64,000 nucleotides of DNA, taken from the NCBI RefSeq assembly GCF_964204645.1, contig NC_134026.1, positions 21,734,150 through 21,798,149 on the forward strand. The letters are read 5' to 3'. This document shows, piece after piece, positions 23,461 through 49,368 of this stretch. The notes under the pieces were generated by a model, which worked only from the letters and a program-made list of their open reading frames with translations, ran no database searches and had not been told where the DNA came from. The DNA comes from Tubulanus polymorphus. Taxonomy: Eukaryota; Animalia; Nemertea. The translations under genes were made by a program, and so were the position numbers. Each line of letters begins with the position of its first letter. The stretch's first letter is position 1.

Positions 23461-24596
23461 GAAGCCCATCATTTGAAACAAAACTTAAACCTGGACAGAA
23501 GGCTGGGCGAATGGTCCCTTTTACTGCCTCCAAGGAAAAAAAGGCACATCTCCTAAAAAAAGAAACTTCAATACCAAAATCATTTTCCAAAATCACTTTT
23601 TTTGGGTGGGTGCTTGTGTGGGTGGATGTTTGGGTGGGTGTGGTTGAATGGGTGGGTGGTTGGGTGGATGGATGGATGGATGGATAGATAGAAAATTATA
23701 GATAAAAATTCTGCGCTTGCCACCTATTTCGATGGGTAAACTGATTAATTATGATAAATGTGCGCTATTTATACGGTATTTTGATTGGTTTTATCACTCA
23801 TTAGGAAAATGGACTACGATATTTAGTCTTATCTTGCGAATTTCCACCTATAGTCTTTGTTGCTCGAATAAACGTGGCAATCAGCTGAAAATAACGAATC
23901 AAGAATAGATTTCTTTTTATTACGTTCTCAGGGTAGATGATTTGATGTTCGAGAAACGCAAGAAACCCCCAATTACCGCCACGCGACCAACTGTCATTTA
24001 GATGCGGTGATAAATCACTGAAATTAGTCTGTTTTGAGCTTCGGAAAACATTCAACAACAGAATTCAGCTCCACGTATGTTCGACGGTGAGCCTAGAGTT
24101 AAAATTATACCATTTCGATTAATCAAAATTACTCTAACTCAAATTTTTCCTCTCAATTCACCTCTCATTCAGTGTTATCAACGTTAGTTTTATGTCGATT
24201 TTTACAAGAAGCATAAATGTAAGAGGTCAGTTATTGTTCGTGATTGATGTTTCATGATCGCATGAATTACATAAAAATTATTAAGATACGAACGACGAAA
24301 TATCGAGAGAAATATTCGTTCTGGCAAATTTAATGTAAGCTTATATGAAAGAAACACACCCAGGAAATGGAATACTAGCGTAAGTGATCTGATATAGAAT
24401 TGATTCGTACAGCATCTGAATTAGATTAAGTATTTGGAAATGTTTTGATTGCTTAGAGCGCAACTATGACGCGCGAACCGACTGTTATTTACATCACCAA
24501 CCGCTTTATCTAACGCACATCATTTGAGAAAAAGCGATGACAACGCATTCGTCGATTTGATTTTTCTACTTCACGGACGTATTTTCTACCGGCTTA

Positions 24597-27500
24597 ATGA
24601 AAATGATGATGATGAGTTTCGTAGCCTTACAAATATCATTATACACAATAATCGCTTTGAATTCGAAAAGAACTGATGCCGCTTTTGAGATTCCCAATTT
24701 GGACGATAAACACTTTGAAGTTGACGGAGATTTAGTTTTGGGCGTTTTATCGTGGATCCATTACAGCGACGAGAGAAACGGATGCTCCGAGAAAGCGTTT
24801 TTACCAACGGGAATCGCGTGGACTGAAATGTTTAAATTTGTCGTAAATGAAATAAACAATAATGCCACGATTTTACCAAATATAACGCTGGGATTGGACA
24901 TCTACGATGAATGTATGAGTACCCGAATCGCTGCCGGTCGAGCAATGCAACTACTGCACCGAGCTGGAACATTTCAGGATACCGCTTCAAATTTTATGTC
25001 ACGAAAGCACCTCGTCGGGGTTATTGGGGGTGTTTTTTCGTCAACGGCTGTCGCCATATCCAGGATCTTCACTCCGTTTGAACTACCGCAGTTAAGTATG
25101 TCGGCGACTTCGGCCGAACTCGATTCTCGATTTTATTTCCCGTATTTTCTACGCTTACCGCCGTCAGATGCCGCACAGACGATCGTCATCGTAGATCTCA
25201 TTCGATATTTTGGTTGGAAATATTTTGCAATTCTCTATCGCGACGACAGTTACGGAATCAACGCCATGCAGATGATCGTGCATCTTACGCGAAAATTACC
25301 GGCCGTTTGTGTCGCTTATAGTAAAGCAATAAGCGACGACAACATCGCAGAAGACACGAGGACGATTGTAAAACAATTAATCAAAGACGGAAGAGTCCGA
25401 GTCGTCGTTACATTTCTATATTCGACGGCCGCATCTGGTTTATTAAGAGCTGTTAATGACATAACAAAGACGAACTATTTCACTTTTATATTTAGCGATT
25501 CAATCGAACCGGCAGCGTTGGATGCCTTTGGAAATTCGCTCGGCGCATTACGTATAGGCGTAGAGTTTCAGTTTAAAGCCGAAGATTATTTCTTTGACAT
25601 CTACGAGAAATACACATACAAAAATCTGTCGACGAATAATCCTTGGAAACACCTGTATATGGAGCGAATTTTTAACTGCACGTGGGTACCATCAAAATTA
25701 TCAATGTGTCAGCAATTCGTGGACACACCGTTTATCAAAAGTCTAATGGGACGGTCGGTGTTCTTTACTTACAGTAGGGCACATGATACAGTTTTGACTT
25801 ACGCAATGGCCTTACATAAACTGATTGAAACGAAATGTCCAGATCTTTTTTCACATTTCAATAAAACGCTAGCAAAAATGTGCGTCACGACTAAACATTT
25901 GTTACCGTACCTATACAATGTTTCATTCGACGGCAAAACAGGTCACATTTTCTTTAATGATATAGGTAACGGAATGAAGCCTTATAACATAGACCAATGG
26001 CAGTTTACTGAAGGAAAATTTAAACTGGTTGAAATCGGAAATTATGACCTATCCACCAAAATGGTATCAATCAACAAACGCTTGGTAATGTGGTATAATT
26101 ACACGCGAAAAGGAACTGGTGGAAAGTTTTTGGTGATTCCCTCGAAAACACCGAAGTCGACGTGCAGCGACCCGTGCAAGCCAATCGAATACGTTCAAAC
26201 ATTGGAGTCAAAATGCTGCTGGGAATGCAATAGATGCCGGAACAACGAATACATCGACATGCACATCACGAAAGGAAACCCGTGCATAGCATGTCCGCTG
26301 TACATGTGGCCCAACCCTGATGACTCCAGGAGCTGCAGAAAACTATCTCCGCAATATCTAAACGTGGAGCACCCGATTGGAATCGGTTTGTGCTTCGCGG
26401 CTGTTGTTGGTATGATAATAACTTGTCTGGTGACAGGTATCTTGGTCAAATACCGCCGAAACCGACTGGTGAAAGCGTGCAGCCTGGCACTTAGTGTATG
26501 CACTTTAATGGGAATTCTCTCTAGTTTTCTGGTGGTGTGTTTACTGATGATAAGACCGGAACGATTTGTATGTTGGCTGCATCGGTTCGGTTTTGCCATC
26601 TCGTACACGGTCGTTTATACCCCTCTTCTGGTAAAGAGTACGCGCATGTATCGCATCTTTTGGGCTGGTAAACGCGGTATCTCGAAACTGAAATATATCA
26701 GCAACTTGTCACAAATGATCGTCACATCTATTGTATTAATACTGCAAGTAAGTAATCTCCACAATGCGCATTCTAGTTCAAATAGAATTAGCTAAGTTTT
26801 ATATAGAATGATTTCTAAAGCGAGACACTTTTGAATTACCAGGAAAAGGTTTAGATATCTTAAGCAATAATTGTGATTTGCGTGTAATTCAATAGGACTT
26901 CGAGGTATGAGTAATTGGAAAAGTAGGCTTTCAGATCAGAGGTCGAGAGGTCGAGACACCACTCATCACCACAAGTAATTTTTTTTCCTAATAAATGGGG
27001 GAGAATGAACACCAACCAGAAAACAATAATGTTAATGAAAATCAATATTATTGCCAATATTGTAAAAAATACATCGATAAATCCCAAAAATCACGACATG
27101 AAAAAACTGCAAATCATATAAAAAATGTAATAGATTTTGAAACACTAGATAATACAAATGAAAGAAAAGAACGATTAGATGATATGAATGTGGATGAAAT
27201 AAAATGTGAAGTTTGTGATGAATTTATAACAAAAAGGAATTATAATAGACATCTCGAAACAGCAAAACACCATCAAAATTTGAGTAATTATGTTTTAGGA
27301 AAAGATTATTTTGATGATAAACCTCAAAAAGTAAAAAAAAACAACTTCAAAAACTAAATCCATTTCAAATAAACCTTACATGGAAAATGTTAGAAATTAT
27401 ATTGATTCACTAGAAATAAAAGATACAATTGAAATTTTAGAAACATTACATAGTAAAATTGGTCCTGCAGCTATTATATTTAGATTTTTCAAAGGTACAA

Positions 27501-30500
27501 CAATAGAAGATTATAGTACATTTAATGAAATAATAGAAAAAATACTAGATTTGATAACAGATGTTGAATATCCAAAAATTAGTATCTCTGGGAAAGTAAG
27601 TTTTATGAAGTCAGAAGAAAAAATGGATTATAATATTCAAACACTCTCTGAAGAAATAATTTCAAAAACGCAAATAAAAGAGAAGTTAGAAAAAATATTT
27701 AATGAATTTAAACGTCATATTGAAGAAAGATATTTTGAGGGTTCTGGCTTAACATTGAATGAAATTATATATTTAGATTTAAATGTTTATAATACAAAAA
27801 GAAATAAAACATCAAAAAGTAATAAAATGTTTAAAAATGATTCAAACTTTACAACAGAAAAGGATATTAAAGCATCATCTTATATTAAATTACCATTTAC
27901 AACAAAAGCAGTAATAAATATTCAAAATGAAGATAATAAATGTTTTCTATGGTCAATTATTAGTTGCTTACATCCAACACAGGAAAATGTTTGTAGAATA
28001 ACATATTACCGGAAATATGAAACATTATATAAAATTGATCAATATCCAATAACTGTAAAAATGATTCCTAAAATAGAAATAGTTAATAATTTAAAAATAA
28101 ATGTATTCGAATTAATGCAATTACCAAAGACAAAAGGTGAAAATATTAAAGATTATACATTGGAAGCTTTATATTTAACAGAATATTATGATGATGAAAA
28201 TGCTATAGATTTGTTATATTATAAAAAAGATGAAAATGAACATTATATGTCGTTAAAACAAATTGATTTATTCTTTAGAACAGAAAGTGATCACCATAAT
28301 AAAATTTATCTATGTAGAAAATGTTTATCTAAATTTATGACTGAGAATACATTATTAAAACATAAAGAATTATGTGATAATAAAGATTTTTGTAAATTAA
28401 TAATGCCAACAGAAAAAGATTATAAATTGAAATTTACTAATCATAAATTTAAGAATATTGTTCCATTTGTAATTTATGGGGATTTTGAATCGTTGAATAA
28501 AGAATTAACTGATCAAGATAGAAAAGAAATATATAACAAAAAGCAATTATTAAAATCAATGGATAAAGGAAATGAATTAAATGAAGACACAATACAAGAC
28601 CCACCAATTCTAAATACAATCAAAAAAGTTCATCAAAGAGCTGCTGCTTATGGAATTTATATAAAATCAAATTATCCTGAATTATATGAAAGTCAATATA
28701 TTTCTTTTAGAGGTGAAGATGTAGTTAATGATTTTTGTAACAAAATGATTGAATTAGAAAGTGATTTTGCAAAATTATTAAACAAAAATGAAAGAATAGT
28801 TATGACAAAAGAAGATGAAATTGATTTTAATTATGCAACTCATTGTTGTTATTGTGAAAAACGTTTTTATTCATTTGATAAAAAAGTTAGAGATCATGAT
28901 CATTTAAATTCAAAATATCGTGGAGCTGCTCATGAAGATTGTAATTTACAAGCTAAAAAAGTAAATTTCGTTCCAATATTATTTCATAATTTATCAGGCT
29001 ATGATACCCATCTATTTATAAAACAATTATCGGGAAAATTGGGTGCATTTAATCAAGAAATAGAAGAATATAATGCTATGAATGATGTAAATGTAAGAAA
29101 ATATGATTTTAAACTATTAGCTAAAACATCTGAAAATTATATTTCATTTCAATTTGGTTGCATTAGATTTTTAGATTCTTATAGATTTCAAGTTCATTAG
29201 ACAATTTATCAAAAAGTTTAGTTGATAATGATTTTATAATAACTCGATATTATTATCAAAATGAACAAGATTTTAAATTATTGAGATATAAAGGTGCAAT
29301 TCCTTATTCATTTTATAAAACACACAATGATTTTAATGTAACAGAATTATTAAAAGATCAATTTTATGATCAATCAAAAGAGGAGTATGTGAAAGATGAA
29401 GTGTTTAATAGAACATTAAATATTTGGAACCATTTTAAGATGAAAAATCATGGTGAATTAGTTGATTTATATTTAAAATCAGATGTTATGATATTGGCTG
29501 ACATATTTGAAAAATTTAGAGAAGTTAATTTGAATCATTTTAATGTTGATCCTTGTTATTGCTACTCTAGTCCTGGTTTACCCTGGCAATGTGGTTTAAA
29601 ATATACAAATGTAGAATTAGATTTATTAAAAGAACCAGACATGGTTTTATTATTTGAAAAATCAATTAGAGGTGGAATTAGTGGTGTTATGGGAGATTGG
29701 TATTTTAAAGCAAATGATGAATATAAATTATTATATATTGACGCCAATAATTTATATGGGCAATGATGCAACCTCAACCACATAAAAATTTTATATTAAC
29801 AGAAGTTGAAAATGATGATAAAACTGATTGGGAAAGCGCAATTATGAGTTTAAAAGATGAAGCACCAATTGGTTATTTCTTTGTAGTTGATTTAGAATAT
29901 CCTGAAAATATAAAGTTTAAAACAAGAAACTTACCTTATTGCCCAGAACATTTAACTGTAGATGATAGTTATTTAAGTGAATACCAGAAGAAAATAAAAC
30001 CGAAAGATCATGTTTTACAGAAAAATTAATACTTACTCAAAATAATAAATACAATTATATCGTTCATTATAGAATGTTAAAATTTTATCTAAAACAAGGA
30101 ATGAAATTAAAGAAAGTACATAGATATATTGAATTTAATCAATCGAAGTGGTTAGAAAAATATTCTAATTTAACATCCATTTAACTGTGGATTTCCATTA
30201 ATAGCCAAAAATACGGACAGTTACATACTAAAAATCAAGACAAATGACATAACAAAAGACTTAAAAACATTAAAACATCATTTTGATTTTAGCAATTATC
30301 CCAAAGATCACGAACTATTTAGTAATGATAATAAAAAGATTCCTGGTAAATTTAAAGATGAATTAGGGGGTGATGAAATGATTGAAATTGTTGGGATAAG
30401 AAGTAAAATGTATAGTTATAGAACAAAAGATCATGAAGCTAAAAAGTTAAAAGGAATAACAAAACATGTGGTTGATAAACATATAGAATTTCAAGATTAT

Positions 30501-33500
30501 ATAAAGTGTTTATATAAATCAATTGTAATGAAACATAAAATGAATTGTTTAAAATCAGAAGATCATGAGATGTACATTAATGAAGTTGAAAAAACTAGTT
30601 TGAATCCATTTGATGATAAAAGGCATATTTCAGATGATGGTATAAAAACATTACCTTATGGCCATTAATCATTAATATTTCTATGAAATTGTTTCATTAT
30701 GAATAAATCATTATCTTCTGAATCATTAACTTCTGAATCATCATCTTCTAATTCTTCATCTTCTAAAAGTTCTATATTTTGTTCATTAATACATTCAATT
30801 AAATATCTATAACTTTCAATCATTAGATGTTCTTCATTTTCATCTGATTGTTTTTCTATAATTTCTTCAGGTTCTTCCATTTCATTTTTCTCATTTAAAT
30901 AACGTGTTATATTGTTCCACATTTCATCTCGCTCTCTTTGTTTCTTTTTGTTTGTTAATTCATCAAATTGAATTATAATATCTATGTTTAAATAATTTAC
31001 AATCTAATTTAAAAAGAATTCATAATTAATTGAATCTGTTATTCTATTTTCCAAATGATACATTAATATTTGTTTGAATATTTTTTTTATATTTTCCATA
31101 TCTTCTTCTGTTAATTTAGGTTTTTCATAATAACCATTAAATAATAAATATAAATACATTTTCTTTTGTTTTGTGTTAAATGTTGATGGAATAATTGTTT
31201 TTATAATATCTTTTTTAGTTATTTCACCATTTTTATTTTCTATCATTTTCATTTTTTCAAGCCATTGCATATATTCTGGTGTATGATCTTCTATAGAAAA
31301 TATTTTAAAAATTTCATCTAGATAATTTAATTTTGGTTCTATGAGAAAATCTCTAGTTTTTTCTTCACCCCATAAATTCCTTAGCTATTCACAATCAACA
31401 CAAAATTGCACAGGACCTTCTTGTCTTAAGGTCGCATAATAACATTGTGGGCATTTTTGTTTATAATTTCTTGGTAATAGATCTTCATTAAGCTCTTGGT
31501 ATTTACTTACGTTTTCTTTATGTTTTATTGTTCTATTATGTAGATTTGAATTACTTGCTGTAATAATCAATTTACAATATTTACAATAATATGTTTTTCT
31601 TGTTAATTCATTATATTGTTTTTCTAACTTTTCAACTGTTTCTTTATTATCTGGTCACGTTTTCTCATATTTCATTTTTTCTAATATTTTATTTTTTCTT
31701 TCATTGAATTCTTCTTCAAATTTATTAGAAATTTTATCCATATGTGCTTTACGAAATTGATGTTTCTCCCAATCTTCTATATTTTCAGGTCTATATTTTA
31801 TTCGACATTGCTCACAGAGATAATCTTTTATATTATCCTTATCATAGAATAAGAAAGGTCTTTTCCAAATAACTTCAGATTCAACTTCAACAGAATTACT
31901 ATTACTTTCATTACTATCAACATTAGCCGTTGCGCCATTAATTTTACACTTCTCTGAATGTTTTTTAACATAATTTCTTGAGAATAATTTATTACATTTT
32001 GGGCAGTTTAGTTTAGGGGGTTTATAATTTTCTTCATGTTTTTTCATATGTCGAGCCATATTACTTTTTCTTAGAAGTTCACCACTAATTTCACATGCTA
32101 TCTTCTCATCCATTTATTAGGGAAAAAAATTACTTGTGGTGATGAGTGGTAATTTTTTTTATGTTATAAATAATGGTAGAATTAAAAGAATACAGAATAT
32201 TTGTTGATTCTAGAAGACTTACAAATTATAAATCACATAATTTACTAGTTCAATTAGATAGAGAATTTAAGAATTGTGTTGATTTGAAATTAGTAGATAT
32301 AAGTTTATGTAACTCATTTTACAATATATCAGATAAAACTGATGAACATAGAAGCCTTTTTATTTTTGATAAACTTGGTAGTAAAATGTTTCAACTTATG
32401 ATTACACCAGGATTATATAATTTAGAAACATTAGCGCAAGAAATTAATAGAAAAGCTCGGATTGGATTAGGTAATGGTGATTCTAAATTTAATATTAAAT
32501 TCATAAAAAGTGAGAGCTCTAATAAAATTAAAGTAAAGTTTGATGATGAAAATATTAATCATAATGAAGAAGTGAATATTGCTTCATTTTCAAGAAGACA
32601 TGCTTACATGGTAAAAAAAAACCTTTTGCTAAACTGTTAGGAATTCCTCCAGATAAGCTTATTGTTGGAAACATATACGGTATATCAAATTTAATACCTT
32701 TTACACATTTTTATATTTATTGCAATTTAATTGATCCTACAAAAACATTTGAAGCAACTAAAAATATAACTTGTAATTCTAGTATACTAAATATTTTACC
32801 ATTAAAAATGTTAAACAATTTGGAACGCAAATAAATTATAATTTAGCTGAATGTGATTTTAAACCTTGTATTCCACATATCAATAATTTTAAATTAGAAA
32901 TAAGAAATCATAATGGTTATTCAATTGATTTGAATAACATTCCTGTGATATATGAATTAGTTATAAGATGTAGAGAGTAATTTTTTTATTATATAAATGA
33001 ATATAACTGTTGGACCGAGTATATGTTTTGGATTTGATTTTAAACGTGAGAAAGAAATGAAATTTAACATTAATGATGTAATTACACATATCAAAAATAT
33101 TGCATTTTCTAATGAAACAACATTTGAGTATGAAACAACAATAGATAAAGAAACTTTAAATGTAGAAAAGATTACTAATTTAATTAGAGAATCTTTAAGA
33201 TTTTATGAATTAGATGACGATTTTATCATTATTTCTAAAATGGAAAATACATTTAATACATATGAAGTTACTTTTACTCGAGATGAATATAATATATATA
33301 AAGTAAAATCTAATATGAAATATTGGCAGAATCAATTAAATTTTGCTGTTCATTGTGCAACAACTGGTTGTGGTGTAAGTTGGCATGAACACTTGAAAAA
33401 TTTGAAATATTCTGATTTAAAATTCATTCATACAATATTTAGATTTCACACATATTTTCAAATCAGAATAATATTAAATGAATTAGAATGCCCTTTACCT

Positions 33501-36500
33501 GGATCGAAATATTTTAAAGAATTGGATAATAATATTAATCTATCTATGTTTTATAATATGTAATGAATTTAATATAAATATTAATTCCGATTTTAGAGCG
33601 CATGGTAGATTACATGGTGTTGGTGAACAGTATGAAATAAAAAGAATTGATTATCTGCATAGAATTGGAGCTTATCATAATTATAGAATTGATAATAATA
33701 ATGGATGGATTAATTTTATTGAATCTTATAGTGAAGGATTTACAAAACCTGGTATACAAAGAATAAATCAATCAATTAGAACTTATTTGATATGTATTTT
33801 AGGTGCGCAAGTTGAAACAAGATCACCAATAGTTGGAAATAATAGTACTTCATTTGATGCGCAGAAACAATTTAAAATATTATTTGAAGATTCCATTCAT
33901 AATGATAAAAATAGATCGATTCCAGAAAACATTGTAAGATATCAAAATTATTTAGATAAATCTCATGTAAGACTAAATTATTGTATAGGTCCTAATCTAT
34001 TAATTATTTCTAATGATTTAGTATTAAAGATGGGAAATATAATTGGTTATAATAATCTAATTAAAACTGCAACAATAAATAATTCAATTGGATTAAATGA
34101 TATAAATAAAAAGATTATTACTACTCCAAAATTAATGGAAGGTGAAAAAAATATTCAATCAACAGAAACTAAAACTAAAAATATTAAATTGCATAATGAT
34201 TCTAAAATAAAAGATTACAATACATCAGAAAATATAAAAACTGATAATATTCAACATGATATAATTAAAACTGATAATGATAATAAATTCCATGAAAATA
34301 CTAAATTAGCTTTAACTTGTATAGGAATTGTTATAGGAGGAATATTATATTTTAAATTTTAATTTTTTTATTATATAAATGGATGTAGAAGGTGGAGAAG
34401 ATATTGGAATGGATAATTTTGATGAGCCTGGCATAACTGAAGAACAACAACCTGATTTTAGTGAAACAAGTTTTAATGATGGTAATGAGCCAGAATATAA
34501 TAATAATTTAAATATGCCTGATTATATTAAAAATGCAGAATCACAATTAAATCCTGAAAATTTAGACCCAGATTTAGTAAAACAAGATTTAGATAATTTA
34601 AACACAATACCTAAATTAAAACATATAATTGAAAATTCTGAATTTAACATAAATGATGAAGACGTTGGACCTTTAGCATATAAATTAAAATTTTTAGATA
34701 ATGGTAAATGGTATTATCATTTGAAAGGTGATTATTATATTGATATCACTTATAAAAATCAAAACAAAATATTAGCAGAATCAACTTTAGAAAAATTAGA
34801 ACCAGGTAGAATTAAAAGAATTAGTAATAGTAATGGTAATGTAATAACTGATGTTATAAAACAAGAATTAACTGTTAATGATATAGACGTGTTTAAACAA
34901 AGAATTAATGAGTTATTTGACAAAATCAAAAAGAACTCAGAAACAGATACAACTTCTGAACAGAATAAACTTCCAAAACTAGTAAACTTAAATCAAATAA
35001 AGTTCTAATTGAAAAACTTTTACCGAATGGATTAAATGATGCAACAGATCAAGAATTAGAAGATTTAAATAATATATTTTCTGTTGAAGCAATTATAGAA
35101 ATTAAAAGTATAAGACTTGCATCTGATAAAATTGCGCATGATAAAAGTATAAGAGATTTTAAAATTAGAACTTTAGAAAAAGAATTAACTGATAAAAATA
35201 AAGAAATAGAACAATTAAAGTCTGATTTAGATCATCAAGTAATTGATGAAATAGAATATAGGCAAAAAAAATTACGTTTAGAAAAAGAAAAAGATGATTT
35301 AGAATATAACATAGAATTACAAAAAGAAGTAATTAAATTATTATTAAAATCATATGATTATAATATTAATAGATTAAAAGTTATTTTTAAAGATTTATTT
35401 ATAAAACCAAATTCTGAAATATCATTGAAAGATAGAATAAAGTTATTATTTAAATTAGAAGGAATAACAATTCTTTCAATTCTAACAGCTGTAACTATGT
35501 TATTTACAACAATTGGTTTAGCAATATCAAATTCTTTGAAATCTACTCCTACTCCCAATAAACCGGATAAACCCCCGAATGATAATAATTCTATACAAGA
35601 TAAAGTTAAGGATGGTTTAAAGAAATTAGCAAAATATTTATGGGAACTATCTAAAAAATCTGCTGCAGCTTTACCAGGAATTATTGCATCAATTGTTGGT
35701 TTTATATTGAAATCTGCTTGGAATATTCTTAACTTTGCTGCTGAACATATTATTTTATTTTTAATTACAGTTGTAAGTGCTATCATTTTTGGGTTAGTGA
35801 ATATGATATCAAAAAGATATCAAGAAAAAATAATAAAAAATAAATAATTAATTTTTTTGTTAAATAAATGAGTGGGAGTTATATAAGTCCTTCTAAGATT
35901 TCTAGAATATCTAAGGCTATTAAAGCAGAAAGATCACATCATATAATTACACATAATCCTTCAAATATTAATCCCAATGAAACTTTATATGTTAGAATTC
36001 CTAGATTAACACAAAATACTTTTTATGTTCCAAATAGTATTTATTTATCAGCTGATATAAAAGTAACTGGTCATGATAATAATTATGTTGTTGATAATGT
36101 TGGGAGATATTTGATTAAAAAATTAACTATAAAGATTGGTCCAGAAACAGTTTTCTCATTAGATGATTATAATTTATTTATGCATTATAAAGATTTATGG
36201 TTAACTAAAGAAAATAGAAAAAATATGATATTTCAAGACATTCAATCGGAAAACCATAATAAATTAAGATCAGGAGCTAATGACGCAATAGTAACTCGTA
36301 CCGCAGATAATTTGATAAAAAAGATTTATGGAAGTAAATATCAAATTCCATTAGATTTTGAATTGATAAGTAATAATGCACCTTTATATAAATATGTAAT
36401 TCAAGAAGATATTATGTTTGAAATAACATTTGCTCCTGTAAATGAAATTGTATTGTCTAGAAATTGTATTTGTTAAAGACATGGGTTATAAATTATCGAA

Positions 36501-39500
36501 TATATGTTTAGAATATGACACAATAACTAATGAAAATATTGCTAGCACAATTCAAACTCAATACAATCAAGGATTTTCATTATTATATGATTATATTGAT
36601 AAATTTAAAACTGTAACTATTAATGCAAATGATGAAATAATGAGAATATTAACTTCCCAAGAAGATCTATTAAAGGTATATTAATATTTTTACTATTGCA
36701 ACATATTCTAATGGTGTAATAAAAGTAGATAATTATTATAATCCTGAAATAACAAAAGTAGAAATAACTATCGAAGGTATAGCAAATAAAATATTTTGTC
36801 AGGGAATGAGAATGATAGATCAGTGGCCAGAAATAAGAAAACATTTTATGAATGAAAAAGTAAAATCATTTGAAAATTGTAATATTAATCAAATTGATTA
36901 TTATACCGGCATGCATTATGGTTAGATTTTAGAACAACAGAGGATAATTCATTACATGGTTCTGGAAAAAAATTACAAAACACTAAAGATGGAATACAAT
37001 TATTCATGACAAAGAAAAAAGGAAGCCTAAATTTCAAAATGCATATTTATATTATATCTGACGCACAATTAAATATTGTAAATTCACAATTAGATAGTAT
37101 TCAATATAAATAATACTTTTAAATGGATTGATGTTTTACCAAAATTGATAGAAGGATATAATAATTCTTATCATTCTTCTATTGGAATGAAACCTACTGA
37201 TGCTAGAAAACCTGAAAATGCTGAAATTGTTTGGAATAATTTATATGGAGCATTTCTTGTCGATGATTTTGGTGAACCTAAATTTAAAGTTGGTCAAAAT
37301 GTTAGAATTTCTAAGTATAAAAAGATATTTGACAAGGGATACGATCGAAATTTTACTAGGGAAATATATAAAATAAAAAAGGTAATAACAACAAAACCAT
37401 ATGTCTATAAATTAGAAGATTTAGATGGTGAAGAAGTTGATGGGTATTTTTATGAAGAAGAATTGAGTTTAACTACTGAAAATCTAGAACAAGAATATAA
37501 AATTGAAAAAGTATTAAAAACAAAAACTATTAAAAGAAAAAAATATTCTTTAGTAAAATGGGTTGGATGGCCAGATAAATTCAATGAATGGATATTATCA
37601 AGTAAAATTAAAAATATATGAATGAATAAGGAATTATTTATATTTGAGCCTCATAATATGTTAATTTCTGGTGTAACAAATTGTGGAAAAACTTATTTTA
37701 TGTTAAATTTATTAGAGACTTTTTATAAAAACTATTTTGATAATATAGTATTATTTTGTCCAACATATGAATTTAATCAAACTTATGATAGAAATATTAC
37801 TAGAAATAGTAAATTTATTACATTAGATCCTAAAACAGTAAAAGAAAATTTAGATAATTGTATTAAAATAGCAATAGATATTTATAAAGGATCAAATACA
37901 TTATTCATTATAGATGATTGCGCAAATTTACATGATTCAAAAGTGAGAGAAAGTGAGTTATGTTACTTAGCTTTTTCTGGGAGACATTTTGGGATAACAA
38001 CTTGGGTTTTAAATCAAAAATATAATTCAATTGTTAAAGATTTTAGAGAAAACATTAGATTTTTAGTTTTATTCTACAATAAAGATAGAAAATCGATGAA
38101 AAATGCACTTGAGGAAAATGATATTATTCCACATGATTTACATAATGAATATATGGATAAGTTGAAAAATATTAAAAGATCAAAATTACTATTTAGATTA
38201 CAACACCCATTTAGATATGAATTTATTTAAATTCAACTGGCTTGTTAATCTAGTATATTTTTAGTTACATTCTAGTTGAATTCTAGTTATTAGTAGTTGG
38301 AACAAAAATCAACTAGATTTAACAATATTTCAACTAGCTTGTTAATCTAGTTTAATTCTAGTTACATTCTAGTTGAATTCTAGTTGTAAGTAGTTGGAAC
38401 AAAAATCAACTAGATTTAACAAGAAATAAACAAAAACAACAATATTTCAACTAGCTTGTTAATCTAGTTGAATTCTAGTTACATTCTAGTTGAATTCTGG
38501 TTGCAACAACAAAACTAACTTATTTGTTATATAAATGGTAGGTGAAAAGAAAATAAAATCTAAAAATGGTGATGTTCCAATTGAAAAAACTTTAGATGAT
38601 TTAGGAATAACAGAAACAAAATTAACTCCAGATGATGGTGCTTTGAATAATGTAACAACAAATAATAATTATGAATATTATCTTTATTGTAAACATCAAT
38701 TAGAAATATTAATAGCATCTGGAAAATGTAAAAATTTTATTGGTAAAAATTTAACTTATAATGAATTAGATACAATGAAATCAGATGAAATTATTAGATT
38801 ATTTAAGATTTATGAAACCGCGAGAACAGCTAGAATTAATGACGCGATATCAGAAAATGTAGTGAAAGGTTATAGTAAATTATGTAATTATATGCTGCCA
38901 ATTCAAGATGAAAATAGATTATATGCTGATTTAGAAAATGATTATTTAGTTATGACTGAATTAAATAAATGGATTGGAGATTTATCATTTCAATTAGGTG
39001 GATTTATGACATTATTATCAACTGGAATTATAACATTTTCAAATATTGAAAGTAAAAATATTTCTATAATAAATGAACAAGGTGGAAGAAGTGAAGAAAA
39101 ATCCGAGATCACAGAAACAAAATGAATGGTCTCGACAATTAGGAATTAAATCACAAGAATTTAAAAAAGCTAAAAAAGAAGGAATAAATAATGAAAATTT
39201 TAATAATAGTGAAAATATTGTTAGTTCTACTCCTTCTGGTAATAGAATATTTGATAAATATTTATATTTTACAGTTGGATTTGTAATTGTATTCATTTTG
39301 ATTGGGTGTAATTGGTATAAGAAATCAAATAAAATTCATGATATTAATAATTCTGAAACAACTGCTATCAAAAATGAAAATAAATCTGAAATTCCAAAAT
39401 TGACAATAAAAAAATGGATTAATATTTTAGAAAAAAAGCAAAAAAAATCATGTTTTTAATCAATTGAATATTAATTGAATATCTCACTACTTTTGTTAAT

Positions 39501-42500
39501 CTATACGGAGCAATTAAATTGTCCAGATAAGTCATTTCGGATTCTAGATATTCATTATTTTTATTAATTTATTTTTTTAAATTTAATCAACAATTTCTAA
39601 ATCATGATGGCCATCTTCATTTTTTCCATGATAGATTATTTTAATCCTTCTAAATCTTTTAATTCCTCTATACTCAATGAAACCCATTTATCAGGTAAAA
39701 ATACTTTAAATTCTCGCGATGTACTAACATTGCAGTAGCTTAAATTAGCTGATACTTTCTCTCCATATTTAGTTTTTATCTTTTCTAATTTCAATATTTT
39801 ATGTTCAATTTCTTTTGTAACATCAACTAACTTTTTTATTTCAAATTGTTTTTTTTGTTGGTTTTATTCTGTTATTTATTGTTGCTAAGAATCTCCCATT
39901 TATAAGGAAAACAAATTATTTGTGGTGATGAGTGGGGATTACTTCCCCTTGTATAAACAAGCACGCTATTAACCGTTCTCACCCAAGCCTCACGGCATCT
40001 ATTTATCGGGGCACAGTCGAAGTTTTAAGAAATTTGGGGAATTATGAGATTTGGCGATTGGGTAGATGATACAGTCTTCGACTGGTCTAATTTAAAAAAA
40101 ATTGTCAACTTGTGACCGACTTCGATTCACTTTTGCCTCTAAGCTGGTCTGCAACTTCATTGCCTCCATGGTTGAAGAAAGAGCTCTTCTGATGTCTGCT
40201 TCATCATGAGCATATCGTGTAGCCAGCCGGCCCGGTCCCGGGGCCCGGTTTGGCTGTCACTCGATATCCTAGACTTGAGTCTGGGTTGAAGTAGACATTG
40301 TCATTTAAATAACTTATTCATGTTATTCTGTATGAATTACCCGTGTGTCTTGTATTTTGTATTTTCTTAGTTTAAAATTTGTAACTTTATTGAATTTTAT
40401 CCCGGAATTTCAATGAAATAAGGATCAATAAAGTATTGAATTGAATTGTCACCTTATACACATGCCATCAGTGGACGCGGAGCCGTATATGACAGCTATG
40501 CTATTATAAATTGCTAATCTCATGAAACCTGCATACCCCTAATATCGAACATATTTTCTAAAACATTTGAATATTATATGTTTACACGTTTTTATATAGA
40601 CCGCTTGTAGCCGCCGATGAAATTCACACCGGCCCTACTCAGATCGTAGATAGCTTCGTCATTCCACTAGCATCCCCATGACAGGGTCTGACTTTTATAT
40701 CAGACTTCCAAATCGTGTATACATCCGCCATTTAACCGAATAATCCGATTTACTTATCATTTCTTTTTATGCCTGCCGCTCCTGATATAATCATACATCA
40801 TTTACTATTACAATACGTCTTCTCATGATATTCAATGCAATATAACATTCCGACGTTCAAATGGAGGTCATTATATAATCACAGGGAGCCATTCTACATC
40901 TTTATCAATAATATTTTGCCAAATAGCTTGTATGTGTACACATAAACCTGTGACGTTTTGCACATCGATTTACGGTTGTCGTTTGTAAAATGACGCTGAA
41001 TGGTTAGCATTGTTAAGGTTTCATAATGGTAACGTTTTATAAGGCGTCAAAAAAATTACTTGTGGTGATGAGTGGTGTCTCGACCTCTCGACCTCTGATC
41101 TGAAAGCCTACTTTTCCAATTACTGGTATGATTATGTTATATAAGTATGTACATTATCACTTATGACAGATAAGCGTAAATTACTGTTTCATTTAATACG
41201 CTTACAGTGTACTCTCACTAATCAGACTCATCAATTTGTAGTGGATTATGCCATTTATAAGAGTTGTGTACCCTCTACAATCCACCCAGGATCCCCCTGC
41301 CAAAATGTTTTTTGATAGTGTGAGGGACATTGTGATCGAATGTATCTTATTTTGATTATTGACTGAATTTCTTCAGTTTTTAATCAAGTTTTTCCTTTGG
41401 TATATGTTAATCCAACCGATCCATCATTTCACAAACCTTGGATAACTCCTTGTATTGTCACAGCAATTAAAACAAAAAACAGCCTCTATAGGAAACTTGT
41501 TCGAACTCGTTCTGATAAAATAAAAACCAAGTATAATTCGTACCAAAATCTCATTTAAAAGCTTATTAACAAAGCTGAATCTGATTATTATTCTGAAAAG
41601 TTACTTGCTGCTGGAAATGATATGAAGAAAAAGTGGAATCTGTTGAACACAATTTTAGGGAAACACTCATTCAAAACTACCAAACTCCTTTACCTCCGAT
41701 CAACGTATAGCACCCTGACATTTCCGCCTTGCAAGTATAGCACCCTGAGATTTCCGCCTCGCAAGCCCAGGGTAACTACGTAAAAAATCCTTAAGTCGAC
41801 GATCAGGAAGCAACGACGAGAAAGCGTTCTTAAAACTTCAAACTCAAACTTAACTTAAATTTCACTTTATTTTCTTGGATATATCGGAGAGACGAGGCTG
41901 GACATCCAACCCGCTCAAAAGCTACAACTCGAATCTCTGATTTCTTTCAACAAATTTTCCACCAGGATACTATTACATAAGACACCAAGGGTGGCAGAGA
42001 CCAGAAGGCAGTTATCAAAACAATACAAACTGACTGACACTTCAAGTACATTTCTAAAACAAACAAACAGTCCGACACTCCAAAACTGATTGCCATCCTG
42101 CCCCCTTAGTAACATCGATGAAAATAAGACAATATTTGTAAAATAAGAAATAGAATTCATAACTTGACCTAAAAATGCTCTGTTAATTTAGACTAAATTT
42201 AGTTAAATATCTACGGTGTTATATTCTCCCATTGCATCTCCTTCAACTTTTGCATGTAATGCAAAAGTTGAGTACATTATGTAAAAATACATTCTTATTG
42301 GTATATCATTATAAACTGATGATTAATAGAATATGTATAAAATGCTCTGGGTTTGCAATTTAACTTATTTGAGTTACAATTAGAATACAATGAACAAACA
42401 CATTTACGTTGTTTGAGGAAATTAACTATGGTAGAAGCAGTAAAGATGTATTTCATAATATGATATATATGATTTTGCTTTCTAGATTATTCCTTAAAAA

Positions 42501-45500
42501 TTAACAATACAATCATTTTAAAAGGGTAGGGTTACCAGTCGTCCCTGTAGCACGGAATGACTATAAGTTATTAAAAAGGTTTTTTTTGTAGATGAAATGT
42601 ACTAAACCCACCACCATTGATGAATGATATATATATGCTAATATGGTTACATTATGCTAAAATGGAATATCTATGAATACAAATACTTAAAGAAGACACA
42701 AAACGTTCAGATCAATTACGTGACAATACCAAAACAATGAAATTACATAAATGACACATAGTCTATCCTAGGTTTTAAAATAAATCATTCTTCTCTTCTT
42801 ATGTGATGCAGAAAGGGAATCAGCAGACGTTTACTGAATAATCCTTTTATTTCGATCATTACGTATATACTTTTATTTTTACCGCAACTCTTGTGTATAT
42901 ATTCATATCATTAAATTTAACTTCCTATCAATCCCACATATTTTAATATTCATATAATTCTCTTTTTATCTGCTGTGACATACAGCTAGTCTAATCTTAC
43001 ATTGTCATTCTTTTTCCAATCGATCTCAATTAACATTAATCATGCTCGTAGACGTGTACTAAGCAATTAATAGTTAGTTTTCATACATATGATATTGGCA
43101 AATAAATTCAACTATGTACTAAATAATTTCTTCATTGTGCTAGCGGAGGTGAGCAAAACACAATAACTCCACTAAATACATTTATTTTCTATAGCCGTTT
43201 TGAGCGTCTTTTCTTCGATTTTCTGACGCTTTCAGACGGTAGGCGCGCTGTCCCAGAATCTGTACTGTTGGGACAGAGATTTAAACTGCTCATGATCTGC
43301 ATCGAGCGATAAACTTGTTGTTCGAGTGCAGGAATACGAACGCACATTCCTGTGTATTTCTTTTCGAGCTCTTGGTTTTCGAATTTTAGCCGGTTATTTT
43401 CTGTGATCGTATTTCGAATAAAATTTTCCTTTTTGGCTGTTTGCGAATTTGAAGTTTCTAACCACGGCGCAACGTTTAAAACGGTATTTTCAATGGTGCA
43501 CTGAGAACTGGCATCACATAAAGTCTTTTCAAATGGCAATAAATCGCATTGAATGCAAATATCCTTTATCCGAAACTTCGAGTTGAGTTTGAACGCTTAC
43601 GTCTCGGAGCCATGGATCCTCAAGCGCATCATGCCAAAAGTCTGACGGTTGATCACGATTTGTTGATGATATCTGACACGATTGTTCCGAATTTCGATAT
43701 TCAACAGATTTCAGTTTTTCATTCGTGACACGAAGCTGATTTTCCAAGCTATGAATTTTCTGTTCTAACTGGCTGACTTCAAAACGCGATTCTTTCCAAC
43801 GATTGTAATTGTCCATACGTATTTTGTCCCGATTTCGTTGTTTTTCGGATTTCCGACGAATAAATCTTGTTTCTCTTCTGGGAAATTTTGAGAATTGAAC
43901 TGGACAAAATCTAGCGTAATGTCCGATTCCAGAACAAAGATCACACACAATTTTGATTGATTTACCGTAACAGTGCGCATCAGTTCGATGTCCTTTTTGC
44001 CTCCATTCCGGATGTGAATTCCAACGTATTGTCATCTTGAAGCTGGGGAACTTAGCGACAGATAGTTCAGCACTCACTTTAGCTCGAGGACAGATACCTA
44101 GGTTTTTCTTTATCGTGCCCGGGTTCTCCACCAATTATAGCACCCTGACATTTCCGCCTTGCAAGTATAGCACCCTGAGATTTTCGCCTCGCAAGCCCAG
44201 GGTAACTACGTAAAAAATCCTTAAGTCGACGATCAGGAAGCAACGACGAGAATGCGTTCTTAAAACTTCAAACTCAAACTTAACTTAAATTTCACTTTAT
44301 TTTCTTGGATATATCGGAGAGACGAGGCTGGACATCCAACCCGCTCAAAAGCTACAACTCGAATCTCTGATTTCTTCCAACAAATTTTCTACCAGGATAC
44401 TATTACATAAGACACCAAGGGTGGCAGAGACCAGAAGGCAGTTATCAAAACAATACAAACTGACTGACACTTCAAGTACATTTCTAAAACAAACAAACAG
44501 TCCGACACTCCAAAACTGATTGTCATCCTGCCCCCTTAGTAACATCGATGAAAATAAGACAATATTTGTAAAATAAGAAATAGAATTCATAACTTGACCT
44601 AAAAATGCTCTGTTAATTTAGACTAAATTTAGTTAAATATCTACGGTGTTATAAATGCATTCTTCCTGGTGATACAAATATTGCCAACGAGTTCAACAAT
44701 TTTTTTTAAATATTGGTGAAAAGCTTGCTAGTCAAATCCCCGATACAGGGCAATCTTTTCATCAATATATGAATAATCGTGTCAATGAAAATATCTTTTT
44801 TTCTCCCTACCTCGCCCAATGAAATAAGTGATGTTTTTTCGGGTCTTCCCTCAAAAAAGAGTGCCGGTGTTGATGGTTTTAGTATTTTTATCATTAAACA
44901 AGTAATTGATACCGTTAAGTTCCCTCTATCCCACATCTTTAACCGTAGTCCTCAGACGGGAATAGTCCCCAACGATCTCAAAATTGCTAAAGTTTGTCCT
45001 TTGTTTAAATCAGGAGCCCCTTATTCTTCTGATAATTACCACCCGATTTCTTTGCTTCCTAGCTTCTCAAAAATTCTGGAAAAATTGGTTTACAACAGAT
45101 TAGTTTCATTTTATAACAAACAGGATATTGTAATCCCCAACCAGTTTGGTTTTCGTCCTAAGCATTCAATTGCTTTGGCACTAACCAAGGTCGTTGACAA
45201 TCTTACTGAAGCCCTAGAAAAGAAAGTTATTTCTATAGGATTATTCTTGGACCTTTCGAAGGCATTCGATACTGTTAACCATTCAATGTTGCTAAAGAAA
45301 CTCGAGTTTTATGGTATCCGGGGGGTTTGTCATGATTGGTTCAAAAGTTATTTGACTGATAGGAGTCAAGTAGTTAGTTATGATAATACTACATCATCCC
45401 CATTAAAGGTACTAATTGGTGTATCGCAGGGTTCCATTTTAATTACTCCTTATTTTATACATGAACGGTTGCGTTAATGCATCCAAGTTACTCCAATTTA

Positions 45501-46571
45501 ATCTTTTTGCCGATGATACCAATTGTTTTTATAGCCATACAAATATTAATGAATTGGTTTCTACATTAAATTCAGAACTAGTAAAACTTGGTATCTGGTT
45601 TCAAGTGAACAAACTTTCTTTAAACATTAAGAAATGTCACTTCATGATTTTTGGTAATGCAAATCACTTCAATTTTCCCATTCGCTTAAATGGTGAATTA
45701 ATCAAACATGTTCACAGTACAAATTTCTTAGGTCTTTTCATAGATGATAAATTAAATTGGGATGTCCATATCAAAAATATTTGTTGTAAGGTTACACGCT
45801 CCATTGGAATTCTGAATAGATTTAAAAAACATTTCCCATCATATCTCCTTATTACCCTTTATTATAGTTTTGCTTATCCTAATTTACAATATTGTAATTT
45901 AATCTGGAGTAGTAACTATGCAAATAAGCTTAATGCACTCTTTTTATTACAAAAAAGGGCAATAAGAATAATTAATAAGTCCCATTATCGTGAACACACA
46001 GATCCTATCCTCTCCTTATTACCCTTTATTATAGTTTTGCTTATCCTCATTTACAATATTGTAATTTAATCTGGAGTAGTAACTATGCAAATAAGCTTAA
46101 TGCACTCATTTTATTACAAAAAAGGGCAATAAGAATAATTAATAAGTCCCATTATCGTGAACACACAGATCCTATCTTCACGAAATTAAACATTCTCAAA
46201 TTGAAACATATTACCAAATTTCAACTCAGTGTATTCATGTTCAAATTCAATAACTCACAATTGCCAAATTCTTTCAACCATTATTATCAAAGGAATATAG
46301 ATATACACTCGCTATAACTCGCTATTCAACTAGAAACAATAATTTTTTCCCTATTGCTAGATTCAGGACCAACAATACTCAATTTTCTGTAAAAATCTCT
46401 GGTCCTGTTGCTTGGAACCATTTGCCAAAAAGTCTGAAAAATCTTTCGTGCATCCATATTTTCAAGATAAAACTTAAATTGTATCTCATGAATTTGTGAT
46501 TCTGAATTATCCAAGTTAATTTTAATGCTTTTGTATCTGTCATCTGTTACCAGAGTGTAAGAATGTATGTA

Positions 46572-47731: not shown

Positions 47732-49368
47732 ATCGCACGTACGACCTAGGTGTGCGAAATTGAACTGACTCCCGTGGCTATGGTGGCTGATTCAGCCCAT
47801 AATTGAAAATACAGATCTATGCAAATCTATATGAACCTCTGTATACGGCTAAAGACATGATAAACGATTTTTTACATTTTGGTTTTCTCTCGCGAGCATT
47901 CGAAAAGTCGGTTTTTTTCGCACGAGAAAACAAAAGATTGGCCAATGCAATGTAAAAGATTTCTTATCTAGCTTCAGCCGTTTAGAAAAATTGTTCAAAC
48001 CAAAGCGTTTTGTATTTTTGTGCGATAGAACAAAAAGTTTGGAAAGCAAAAGGTGGGTCAATGTAAACATTTGTTATCGTGCCTCTATAGCTGTACAGAA
48101 CAATTTCCTAGTAAGGCCCAAATCAGCCACCATACGCAAGAGCACACTGAAAACCAACGAACTATCATTTGGTATAGATGATAACTCGATTTTATTTTAG
48201 AATCTATTTGTTGGTAAACTCATGGTCTTAGGCCTACACTATCACAATACAAATGCAGTTAATATATTGTAAAACGTACCCAAAGATCGATGTAAATGTT
48301 TATGCAATTGCATTTGTCAGTGATAATTTTGAAATTACCGCCTCGTAGATGGAGGGGACATCGAATAATGTGTGTACAGAACTTTAATATTGGACATATT
48401 GTTTCAAATGACCTTATAAAAATGAAACCGTAAAAACGAGTTTGCTATCTTCGTTGTTTGTCTCCTCTTCATTATATGCTGATGCCGTTTTGTGACGTAG
48501 TCTTATGGAGTTCATATGTACATGTATAACAGTAATATTTGTAACTTGATATTAGTAACTTGAATGCGCTTAGATGTAATGTTCGTATGAAATAATAACT
48601 AATAAATGTACTTACTGGATGTTTCAGTTTTGCAATGTATCGAACAGTGGACATCATTGATGATTTAAATATGTGTTGTGTTTGTAGCGTAAATCAGCAT
48701 TTTGTGATGTATCTTTTGAATAAAGTATGAATATGGTGATGCATGAACAGGTAAGTTTATCGTACCTTTTTTGGAGCGCGCATTTCCATTACTATGGCAA
48801 CGAATCGTGTAGTATCATAGAAAATAGTCAATGCCGACAATTAAACAAAATTATTTAAATCGTGCCTGTTTTTTAGAATTAATCTATCCAATGGAAATCA
48901 TGGGCAACGTTGGAAATCTAGCCGCATGTGGAGACCGGATCATCCACCAAGGATAATTACTCGAGACCATATGGTGCCCGTGGAGAACAAGCAACAGAAC
49001 CGGACGCATGTACAAATGCAGTTTAAGGAGAAAAGGGTGATGATTTTGTTGACCGGGGGGGGGGGGGGGCTAATCGGGATGTTGATTTTGCTATTTGCAT
49101 TATTCCATCGTAGATACTTAAATCCCGCACCCAAGCTTAAAACAAATATACAATCAATTTTGATTAAGCAATGGAATGCCAGTAGAGACAATCTAACCAC
49201 CGCGTATAGAATTTATTACTTTGACGACTTATTTTCACTGCTGAAAGCGCATTACCGCTGCAAAGCGAGCTGTTATTACGCACATCATTTCAGATAAAGC
49301 GATGACAACGTATTGTCGATTTGAATTTTCTTCTTTACCACAAATTTTCTACCGACTTCTTGAAAATC

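Follow-up and report, generated by a model that had tools for sequence, protein, structure and literature searches.

A TAAATG box at gene starts of a defective Maverick/Polinton-type provirus of the ribbon worm Tubulanus polymorphus and of its metagenomic relatives

Poxvirus late promoters consist of a T-rich core, a spacer of 5–7 bp, and TAAAT(G/A) at the initiation site, and give transcripts with no 5′ untranslated region (PMC5294985). The endogenous virophages of Cafeteria fall into clades that differ in promoter motif, of which only those with late promoters like those of CroV were reactivated (10.1101/2025.10.09.676808), and Polinton-like viruses have been found in the occlusion bodies of entomopoxviruses (PMC11296320). 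The element described here occupies positions 26910–41124 of a 64,000-nt stretch of the genome of the ribbon worm Tubulanus polymorphus (Nemertea; assembly GCF_964204645.1, contig NC_134026.1, positions 21,734,150 to 21,798,149), the whole of which is referred to as the window. It is a defective, integrated Maverick/Polinton-type virus in the intron of an animal gene, and 8 of its 10 determinable gene starts carry a box ending in TAAATG.

By gene content and ends, the element is like the Mavericks/Polintons of animals (Polintoviricetes, adintoviruses): it has a protein-primed DNA polymerase B (PolB), an rve integrase, a double-jelly-roll capsid protein, a penton-like protein, an A32-type packaging ATPase, terminal inverted repeats (TIRs), and a 6-bp target-site duplication (TSD). 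It is unlike the usual animal Mavericks in its extreme AT-richness relative to the host, in the zinc fingers at the N-terminus of its PolB, and in that no protease was detected.

The box has the architecture of a poxvirus late promoter, as had been proposed in an earlier note on this DNA made from the sequence alone. It shares with the published description (PMC5294985) a two-part layout of T-rich block and spacer, an invariant TAAAT followed by G or A, and an ATG inside the box, so placed that TAAAT(G/A) overlaps the start codon; the comparison is with that description. In the window and in a metagenomic relative, L013, a run of seven or eight T is followed by a 6-nt spacer. Against a poxvirus core of about 20 bp (PMC5294985), the upstream block measures 7–10 nt in the window and, among GC-richer relatives, consists of no more than A(A/T)TTT. 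Unlike the poxvirus promoters, the box sits on a 14-kb virus with neither RNA polymerase nor late transcription factors.

With mavirus and the endogenous mavirus-like elements (EMALEs), which are associated with CroV, it has in common that a small, integrating, capsid-encoding virus without a polymerase carries one box before nearly all of its genes. As among the endogenous virophages, related lineages differ in box type (10.1101/2025.10.09.676808). Unlike mavirus and EMALEs, it is found in an animal rather than a protist, its box is of the poxvirus-late kind rather than TCTA, its gene set is Maverick-like, and it has no known helper. The Polinton-like viruses associated with entomopoxviruses are small, have inverted repeats, and have been proposed as hyperparasites of poxviruses in animals; a beetle genome contains an integrated relative of theirs (Barth et al. 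2024, PMC11296320). They differ from the present element in having very divergent capsid proteins and an adenovirus-type protease, and some have a tyrosine recombinase and a primase-helicase (PMC11296320); their hosts are insects, as against a marine ribbon worm here. The words “promoter” and “TAAAT” are absent from the main text of that paper, and no promoter link is reported there. “Promoter” is likewise absent from the main texts of Starrett 2021 (on adintoviruses) and Bellas 2026 (on the diversity of Polinton-like viruses), and in the literature searched (main texts rather than supplements) there was no report of a TAAATG box on Mavericks, Polinton-like viruses, or virophages.

The box in the window

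The earlier note listed nine start contexts, all of which are present where and on the strands where it had placed them: eight end in TAAATG, and the penton-like gene has TAAATA-ATG. Five fit TAATTTTTTT-N6-TAAATG exactly, with the start codon at 26995, 32113 (minus strand), 32997, 34379, and 35868, and three are weaker versions, at 38535, 39073, and 39899 (minus strand). The boxes that can be set out in full are:

26976..26997, plus strand: TAA-T8-CCTAA-TAAATG, start of the PolB gene, in the inner TIR unit
32111..32132, minus strand: TAA-T7-CCCTAA-TAAATG, start of the zinc-finger frame zf2, exact fit
32150..32175, plus strand: variant TAA-T8-ATGTTA-TAAATA-ATG (T8-ATGTTATAAATAATG), penton-like gene, with TAAAT(A) three bases 5′ of the ATG
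32978..32999, plus strand: TAATTTTTTT-ATTATA-TAAATG, its TAA being the stop codon of the penton-like gene
34360..34381, plus strand: TAATTTTTTT-ATTATA-TAAATG, its TAA being the stop codon of the preceding gene
35849..35870, plus strand: TAATTTTTTT-GTTAAA-TAAATG, capsid gene, exact fit
38516..38537, plus strand: weaker box TAACTTATTT-GTTATA-TAAATG, start of a 196-aa gene

The start codon is part of the box, as against a position some 30 nt before the gene, and position −3 is T in every case. The TAA-T8 portion of the first box is part of the inner end of the left TIR.

As a word, TAAATG is not unusually common: there are 33 copies on both strands of the element, where Markov shuffles of order 1 to 3 give 28–33. 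Its distribution is another matter: it is found at 8/10 determinable gene starts and at 25/549 other ATGs (Fisher p=2.6e-9). Among first ATGs of open reading frames (ORFs) in the element, TAAATG is found at 8/21 for ORFs of at least 80 aa and at 4/71 for those of 20–79 aa; since the same “first ATG after a stop” rule was applied to both classes, that rule is not the source of the signal.

On the plus strand of the plus-strand gene block, all four runs of seven or more T lie within boxes. By a rough calculation only about two would be expected inside ORFs, and the runs support no claim about terminators.

The genes of the plus-strand block run head to tail, and their spacing suggests a signal at the level of translation as one alternative: polycistronic RNA would be made from a few promoters (in the TIRs, for example), the U-run...UAAAUG would serve for internal (re)initiation, and the in-frame TAA would close off upstream reading. 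Gaps of 0–22 nt between genes on one strand speak for this, and in three window cases, and some in L013, the preceding gene ends on the TAA that belongs to the box or stands before the ATG. The gaps in the structural block had been put at under 40 bp in the earlier note; they are indeed 16–22 bp or 0, apart from 304 bp of tandem repeats before 38535. Mostly, however, the TAA adjoining the ATG does not serve the upstream gene, whose own stop codon is as much as about 100 nt away. The box is found, too, where there is no upstream gene, at the first gene inside the TIR, and at both members of divergent gene pairs. We know of no internal-reinitiation mechanism of this sort in animal DNA viruses, and consider a translational role for the box very improbable.

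The box in metagenomic relatives

The packaging ATPase has 146 homologs, the best 60–82% identical, nearly all of them unnamed and from sources that include metagenome collections; the few with names are annotated as Bartonella proteins. In IMG/VR, a search with the window ATPase alone found no relatives, and a search with an alignment found only 12 loci, at 22–26% identity. A single metagenome scan yielded 80 loci. Among the relatives, the counts of genes or ORFs that start with TAAATG are:

L013 (80% ATPase identity, 20% GC): 13/15 genes
L015: 5/7 genes
L026 (39% GC): 4/4 genes
L028 (38% GC): 8/8 genes
L030 (39% GC): 6/6 genes
L032: 5/6 genes
24 contigs of the clade, ORFs of at least 150 aa: 54/66
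24 contigs of the clade, ORFs of 80–149 aa: 19/33
24 contigs of the clade, ORFs of 20–79 aa: 18/347
More distant contigs, ORFs of at least 150 aa: 5/184
Well-supported distant clade, 35 contigs, mostly about 50% GC: 4/171 genes

The box is conserved across the clade whatever the G+C content, and is missing at the ATGs of the distant, GC-richer clade of the same family. In the window's own subclade it is found at 30/36 genes. Some of the “misses” within the clade are near variants (TAAATAG-ATG, TAAAT-ATG, TAAAATG), and TAAATA, which stands in for TAAATG at the window penton-like gene, also occurs in L032 and L040. The window ATPase, whose ATG adjoins the integrase stop codon, lacks an exact TAAATG; its homologs in L013, L014, and L015 have one.

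These counts bear on the simplest alternative, that the box is an artefact of composition, in which TAA and T-runs occur by chance at 24% GC and an ORF rule favors TAAATG. The overall count of TAAATG in the window element, at Markov expectation, is what such an artefact would give. The gene-start statistic in the window is not, nor is the contrast between short and long ORFs (18/347 and 54/66) under one ORF rule in the same contigs, nor are the 8/8 and 6/6 genes of L028 and L030, in which the background of TAAATG is 5%. We regard this explanation as refuted.

Upstream of TAAATG, the two composition groups differ in detail. In the GC-richer relatives, a block is made up of A at −16 (72%) together with T at −14 (78%), −13 (61%), and −12 (70%), and the 8 nt that separate it from TAAATG are an uninformative spacer. 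The AT-rich group has a TAA-T-run, the last base of which lies between −12 and −10.

Two kinds of evidence indicate that the ATG within the box is the true start codon: residues G4 and P9 of the capsid protein, just after it, are nearly invariant in 24 sequences, and in the divergent gene pairs of L019 and L020 the two ATGs are only 4–6 nt apart. If so, there is no room for a templated 5′ leader.

In a tree of the ATPase (79 rows, a quick IQ-TREE run with a weak backbone), the box marks three subclades. Boxes of other kinds occur in sister lineages. L022 carries AATTATATAWTAT at 4/4 genes and at none of its other 87 ATGs, and L047 has TATATA within 20 nt at 8/10 genes, as compared with 13/443 ATGs. 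The L022 box, of 16 nt, abuts the start codon at all four genes (TAATTTATAATTATATAWTAT-ATG). The boxes of L047 are reminiscent of TATATA, reported as a late motif of African swine fever virus (PMC5294985). Two genes that lack TAAATG, the L013 integrase (about 7560–7587) and the L017 ATPase (about 625–649), have AAAAT(T/ATT)TGAAA about 10–25 nt before the ATG, which recalls the poxvirus early-promoter core AAAANTGAAAA (PMC5294985); two cases are too few to judge.

How the box may be read

The reading that we put forward, tentatively and as slightly short of an even chance, is that the box is a promoter-initiator read by the poxvirus-like RNA polymerase of a co-infecting large DNA virus, and that the element belonged to a virophage-like virus. 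The two-part box, with its T-run or AATTT block, its 6–8-nt spacer, and its TAAATG containing the start codon, would act as a transcription start rather than a translation signal. Transcripts would begin inside TAAAT and are predicted to carry slipped 5′ oligo(A) heads like those of poxvirus late mRNAs. The polymerase would be supplied by a helper of the poxvirus or asfarvirus kind, and related lineages with other ATG-proximal boxes may be matched to other partners. Every step beyond the conserved box at gene starts we infer.

This reading is preferred because the layout is that of poxvirus late promoters, no polymerase or TBP was found, virophages provide a precedent, and Polinton-like viruses occur with entomopoxviruses. 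The low GC of the element relative to its host was also counted in its favor. What the box matches is a promoter class described in the literature, rather than the promoters of a helper accompanying the element. As the earlier note had it, no RNA polymerase is encoded: domains of RNA polymerase and of TBP were looked for in 19 window and 15 L013 ORFs (E<=0.01) and in 10 L013 ORFs (E<=1), and none turned up, although a very divergent TBP could escape such a search and L013 is without the PolB end of the genome. The 196-aa protein of the orf206 family (below) is not TBP-like by sequence.

The main alternative needs no helper: the box would be the element's own core promoter or initiator, read by host RNA polymerase II (Pol II), perhaps with a DNA-binding factor encoded by the element. 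Such a factor might be one of the zinc-finger proteins encoded at the two ends, or a divergent TBP that escaped detection, and the mRNA leaders would be very short. Zinc-finger modules are indeed present, fused to PolB and in the minus-strand gene; the element integrates into nuclear DNA, with a chromodomain integrase; and sister lineages with other boxes are to be expected if each lineage has its own factor. The position of the box fits less well. A TATA box places the Pol II start about 25–30 nt downstream, which here would be inside the ORF; the box instead abuts the ATG rather than standing about 30 nt upstream of it, and the residues that immediately follow that ATG are conserved. For a scanning ribosome, T at −3 is a poor context, and a −3 that is always T, together with divergent ATGs 4–6 nt apart, is by textbook accounts a poor fit to TATA-directed Pol II or to scanning. 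The domain search that found no TBP in the window or L013, with its limit for very divergent forms, also counts against it. On balance we think such a self-contained or host-read system rather unlikely.

A number of observations weigh against the helper-read promoter. We know of no helper virus for this host, and no other viral inserts were found in the window. A scan of IMG/VR for TAATTTTTTT-N6-TAAATG gave one match per contig in the 80 listed of at least 120 matching stretches, as expected by chance, and the IMG/VR matches listed include no large virus in which the box is frequent. Agreement with poxviruses in the three bases before the ATG carries odds of only about 1 in 64, and T-rich upstream DNA is cheap in AT-rich genomes. 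On the ATPase tree the box trait needs at least four changes, and is thus labile. Animal Mavericks are generally assumed to be nuclear, and integration here is by an rve-chromodomain integrase. Within genes, T5NT, the early terminator of poxviruses, shows no avoidance beyond codon-shuffle expectation (the lowest count is for orf455, 0 where 3.2 are expected, P=0.04 among 12 genes). AATAAA, which the earlier note had described as frequent inside coding regions, does occur 51 times on the sense strands; this is merely the codon-shuffle expectation, neither avoidance nor enrichment.

Extended to the whole clade, the proposal would be that these are virophages of unseen poxvirus- or asfarvirus-like viruses of marine animals, with the helper's late promoter on every gene, that one of them became established in a ribbon worm's germ line, and that the boxes of sister lineages are tuned to other helpers. 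We consider this possible, and rather below an even chance.

The provirus, its host site, and what the box may mean

The earlier note placed the element at 26979..39910. This AT-rich island proves to be the core of a larger insertion, bounded as follows:

26904..26909: left TSD copy, GGTATG, 6 bp
26910..26985, plus strand: left TIR, 76 nt, 100% identical to inverted 41049–41124
39936..41048: 1.1-kb segment that is not AT-rich, flanked by the decayed inner unit on one side and by the true right TIR on the other
41049..41124, minus strand: right TIR, 76 nt, 100%
41125..41130: right TSD copy, GGTATG, 6 bp

Perfect 76-nt TIRs with GGTATG on both sides are in keeping with the TIRs and 5–6-bp TSD of Mavericks/Polintons. 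The TIR word has no match among 92 relative loci, and L013 has no matching ends. The element has 24% GC, as compared with 38% in the host DNA and 20% in L013. The 39936–41048 segment has a host-like composition, without a long ORF and without a second copy in the window; an Rfam search over the element, this segment included, gave no matches.

That this is a virus integrated in an animal genome, as the note supposed, is borne out by the TSD, by its position in an intron of a class C G protein-coupled receptor (GPCR) gene (exon 1 at 24597–26750, exon 2 at about 47165–47728), and by a tandem paralog with a short intron. The interrupted gene is followed by two tandem paralogs, the next of which has an intron of about 230 bp; similarity to the intron of the paralog stops at about 26913, 4 nt or less from the left TIR. 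Among proteins, the best match of the receptor is one of Tubulanus polymorphus, at 87% identity, with the next matches at 27%. In all, three tandem paralogs of this class C (metabotropic-glutamate-like) receptor lie in the window, at 24561–26795, 49306–51558, and 54856–57060. Only the first has a 20-kb intron, which is filled by the provirus and by retroelements bearing reverse transcriptase (44773–46314).

Between its ends, the provirus has the following features:

26995..30668, plus strand: protein-primed DNA polymerase B, a broken gene, with the N-terminal zinc-finger part at 26995–27357
30668..32113, minus strand: zinc-finger reading frame zf2, 152 aa, continuing in frame past three stops (TGA, TAG, TAG)
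32173..32980, plus strand: penton-like (DUF5901-type) gene, two frame changes
32997..34362, plus strand: fusion of the start of a 126-aa gene with a conserved core gene of ~420 aa (family of L013 orf442), one frame change
34379..35847, plus strand: coiled-coil/hydrophobic protein of ~490 aa (family of L013 orf485), one frame change
35868..37110, plus strand: major capsid protein, double jelly roll, four frame changes
37100..37621, plus strand: what is left of an rve integrase, its C-terminal part with chromodomain; the gene start and the first ~120 residues are deleted
37622..38230, plus strand: A32-type packaging ATPase, intact, 202 aa (Pox_A32, E 5e-13)
38232..38542: 97-nt tandem repeat in three copies, TCTAGTT(GAAT)-rich, the third merging into the next box
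38535..39125, plus strand: conserved small protein, 196 aa (orf206 family, 28 loci), helical, with a hydrophobic C-terminal stretch
39055..39459, plus strand: 128-aa gene with a weak box (ATATTTCTATAATAAATG), overlapping the end of the previous gene, its L013 homolog being arranged alike
39586..39935, minus strand: decayed right-end gene, homolog of a 114-aa ORF of L013, with the box TAATTTGTTTTCCTTATAAATG and with stops and frame changes

The PolB gene aligns, over 26995–30668, to residues 8–1337 of a 1363-aa relative, P0139 (61% identical), in six pieces, with five frame changes and ~117 residues lost. The zinc-finger part and the polymerase are a single protein in P0139. What the earlier note had taken for a zinc-finger gene of its own at 26995 is the N-terminal part of PolB, so that PolB too starts with a box. 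A PolB start at 27380, with the zinc-finger part as a separate gene (“zf1”), was rejected on the P0139 alignment; the box count would then be 8/11 (p=9e-9). There are 247 longer homologs, many with PF03175, and some, at about 30% identity, in contigs of beetle and Hydra genomes; with the alignment to P0139, they place the gene among the protein-primed family B polymerases of Mavericks/Polintons.

For the penton-like protein there is a weak DUF5901 match (E 0.0015) and no named penton match; Atlas structure matches of its L013 homolog have TM scores of 0.73–0.82 to viral proteins of ~250 aa, one set of which is named DUF5901. The L013 capsid homolog, 76% identical to the window pieces, gives a model with pLDDT 86.9, for which Foldseek finds the capsid proteins of PBCV-1 (Vp54), SGIV (an iridovirus), Sputnik, and mavirus at E 4e-16 to 1e-10; by this predicted structure, the capsid protein is of the double-jelly-roll kind found in Mavericks/Polintons. 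Sequence searches of the PDB with the capsid protein and the ~420-aa family, single and profile, gave no matches. In the ~420-aa family, whose structure model is unusable (pLDDT 43), certain Q, C, H, and N residues are invariant. A deletion produced the fusion of the 126-aa and ~420-aa genes and took out two small genes. The integrase remnant has a Chromo match (E 8e-5), and the 79%-identical L013 gene has both rve (E 1.5e-10) and Chromo, which places it with the Maverick/Polinton integrases, as the Pox_A32 match does for the ATPase. No protease family, the adenain-like cysteine protease expected of Mavericks/Polintons included, was recognized in the window or L013 ORFs by a Pfam-type domain scan.

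The repeat region at 38232–38542 is possibly a cis-acting site such as an origin, a packaging site, or a binding site. In L013, the interval between the ATPase and the next gene (9085–9409) has 74-nt inverted repeats instead of the 97-nt tandem ones. L013 also has a deoxynucleoside kinase gene (PF01712, E 2e-31) at 10340–10981 on the minus strand, behind a TAAATG box, which is missing from the window copy.

There are three copies of the inner TIR unit and its box (CCACTCATCACCACAAGTAA-T-run...TAAATG), at 26958–27005, 32103–32150 (94% alike), and 39879–39935 (82%). The left 5.2 kb, with PolB and the minus-strand gene, is flanked by inverted copies of the unit that are 94% alike, and the nearest full-length PolB relatives are on contigs of only 4.6–6.7 kb. 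These bracketing copies and short contigs hint that the PolB end may be a separately mobile or exchangeable module.

Only the ATPase and the small genes look whole in the window copy. An alternative genetic code was rejected as an explanation of the in-frame stops, TGA and TAG being mixed with frameshifts and the L013 genes being open under the standard code. The TIRs (76/76 identical) and the TSD are perfect, yet there are well over ten frame changes and several deletions in the genes; for this contrast between young-looking ends and an old-looking interior, indel-prone AT-rich DNA is the one explanation we can offer. The earlier note had suggested that the element might act as an inherited antiviral hyperparasite. 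With its many frameshifts, stops, and deletions, the window copy cannot be a working one, and is too broken to act as an inherited antiviral defense.

The box bears on how animal Mavericks/Polintons express their genes and on whether any of them depend on another virus. A conserved box of the poxvirus-late class on elements without a polymerase makes helper dependence testable. If the helper reading is true, the virophage lifestyle would extend from protists to animals, the Polinton-like viruses associated with entomopoxviruses would be tied to a much wider group, and undiscovered large DNA viruses would be indicated in marine invertebrates, with the type of box possibly serving to predict animal large DNA viruses not yet seen. 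If it is false, the box would still define an unusual, leaderless type of promoter in animal nuclei.

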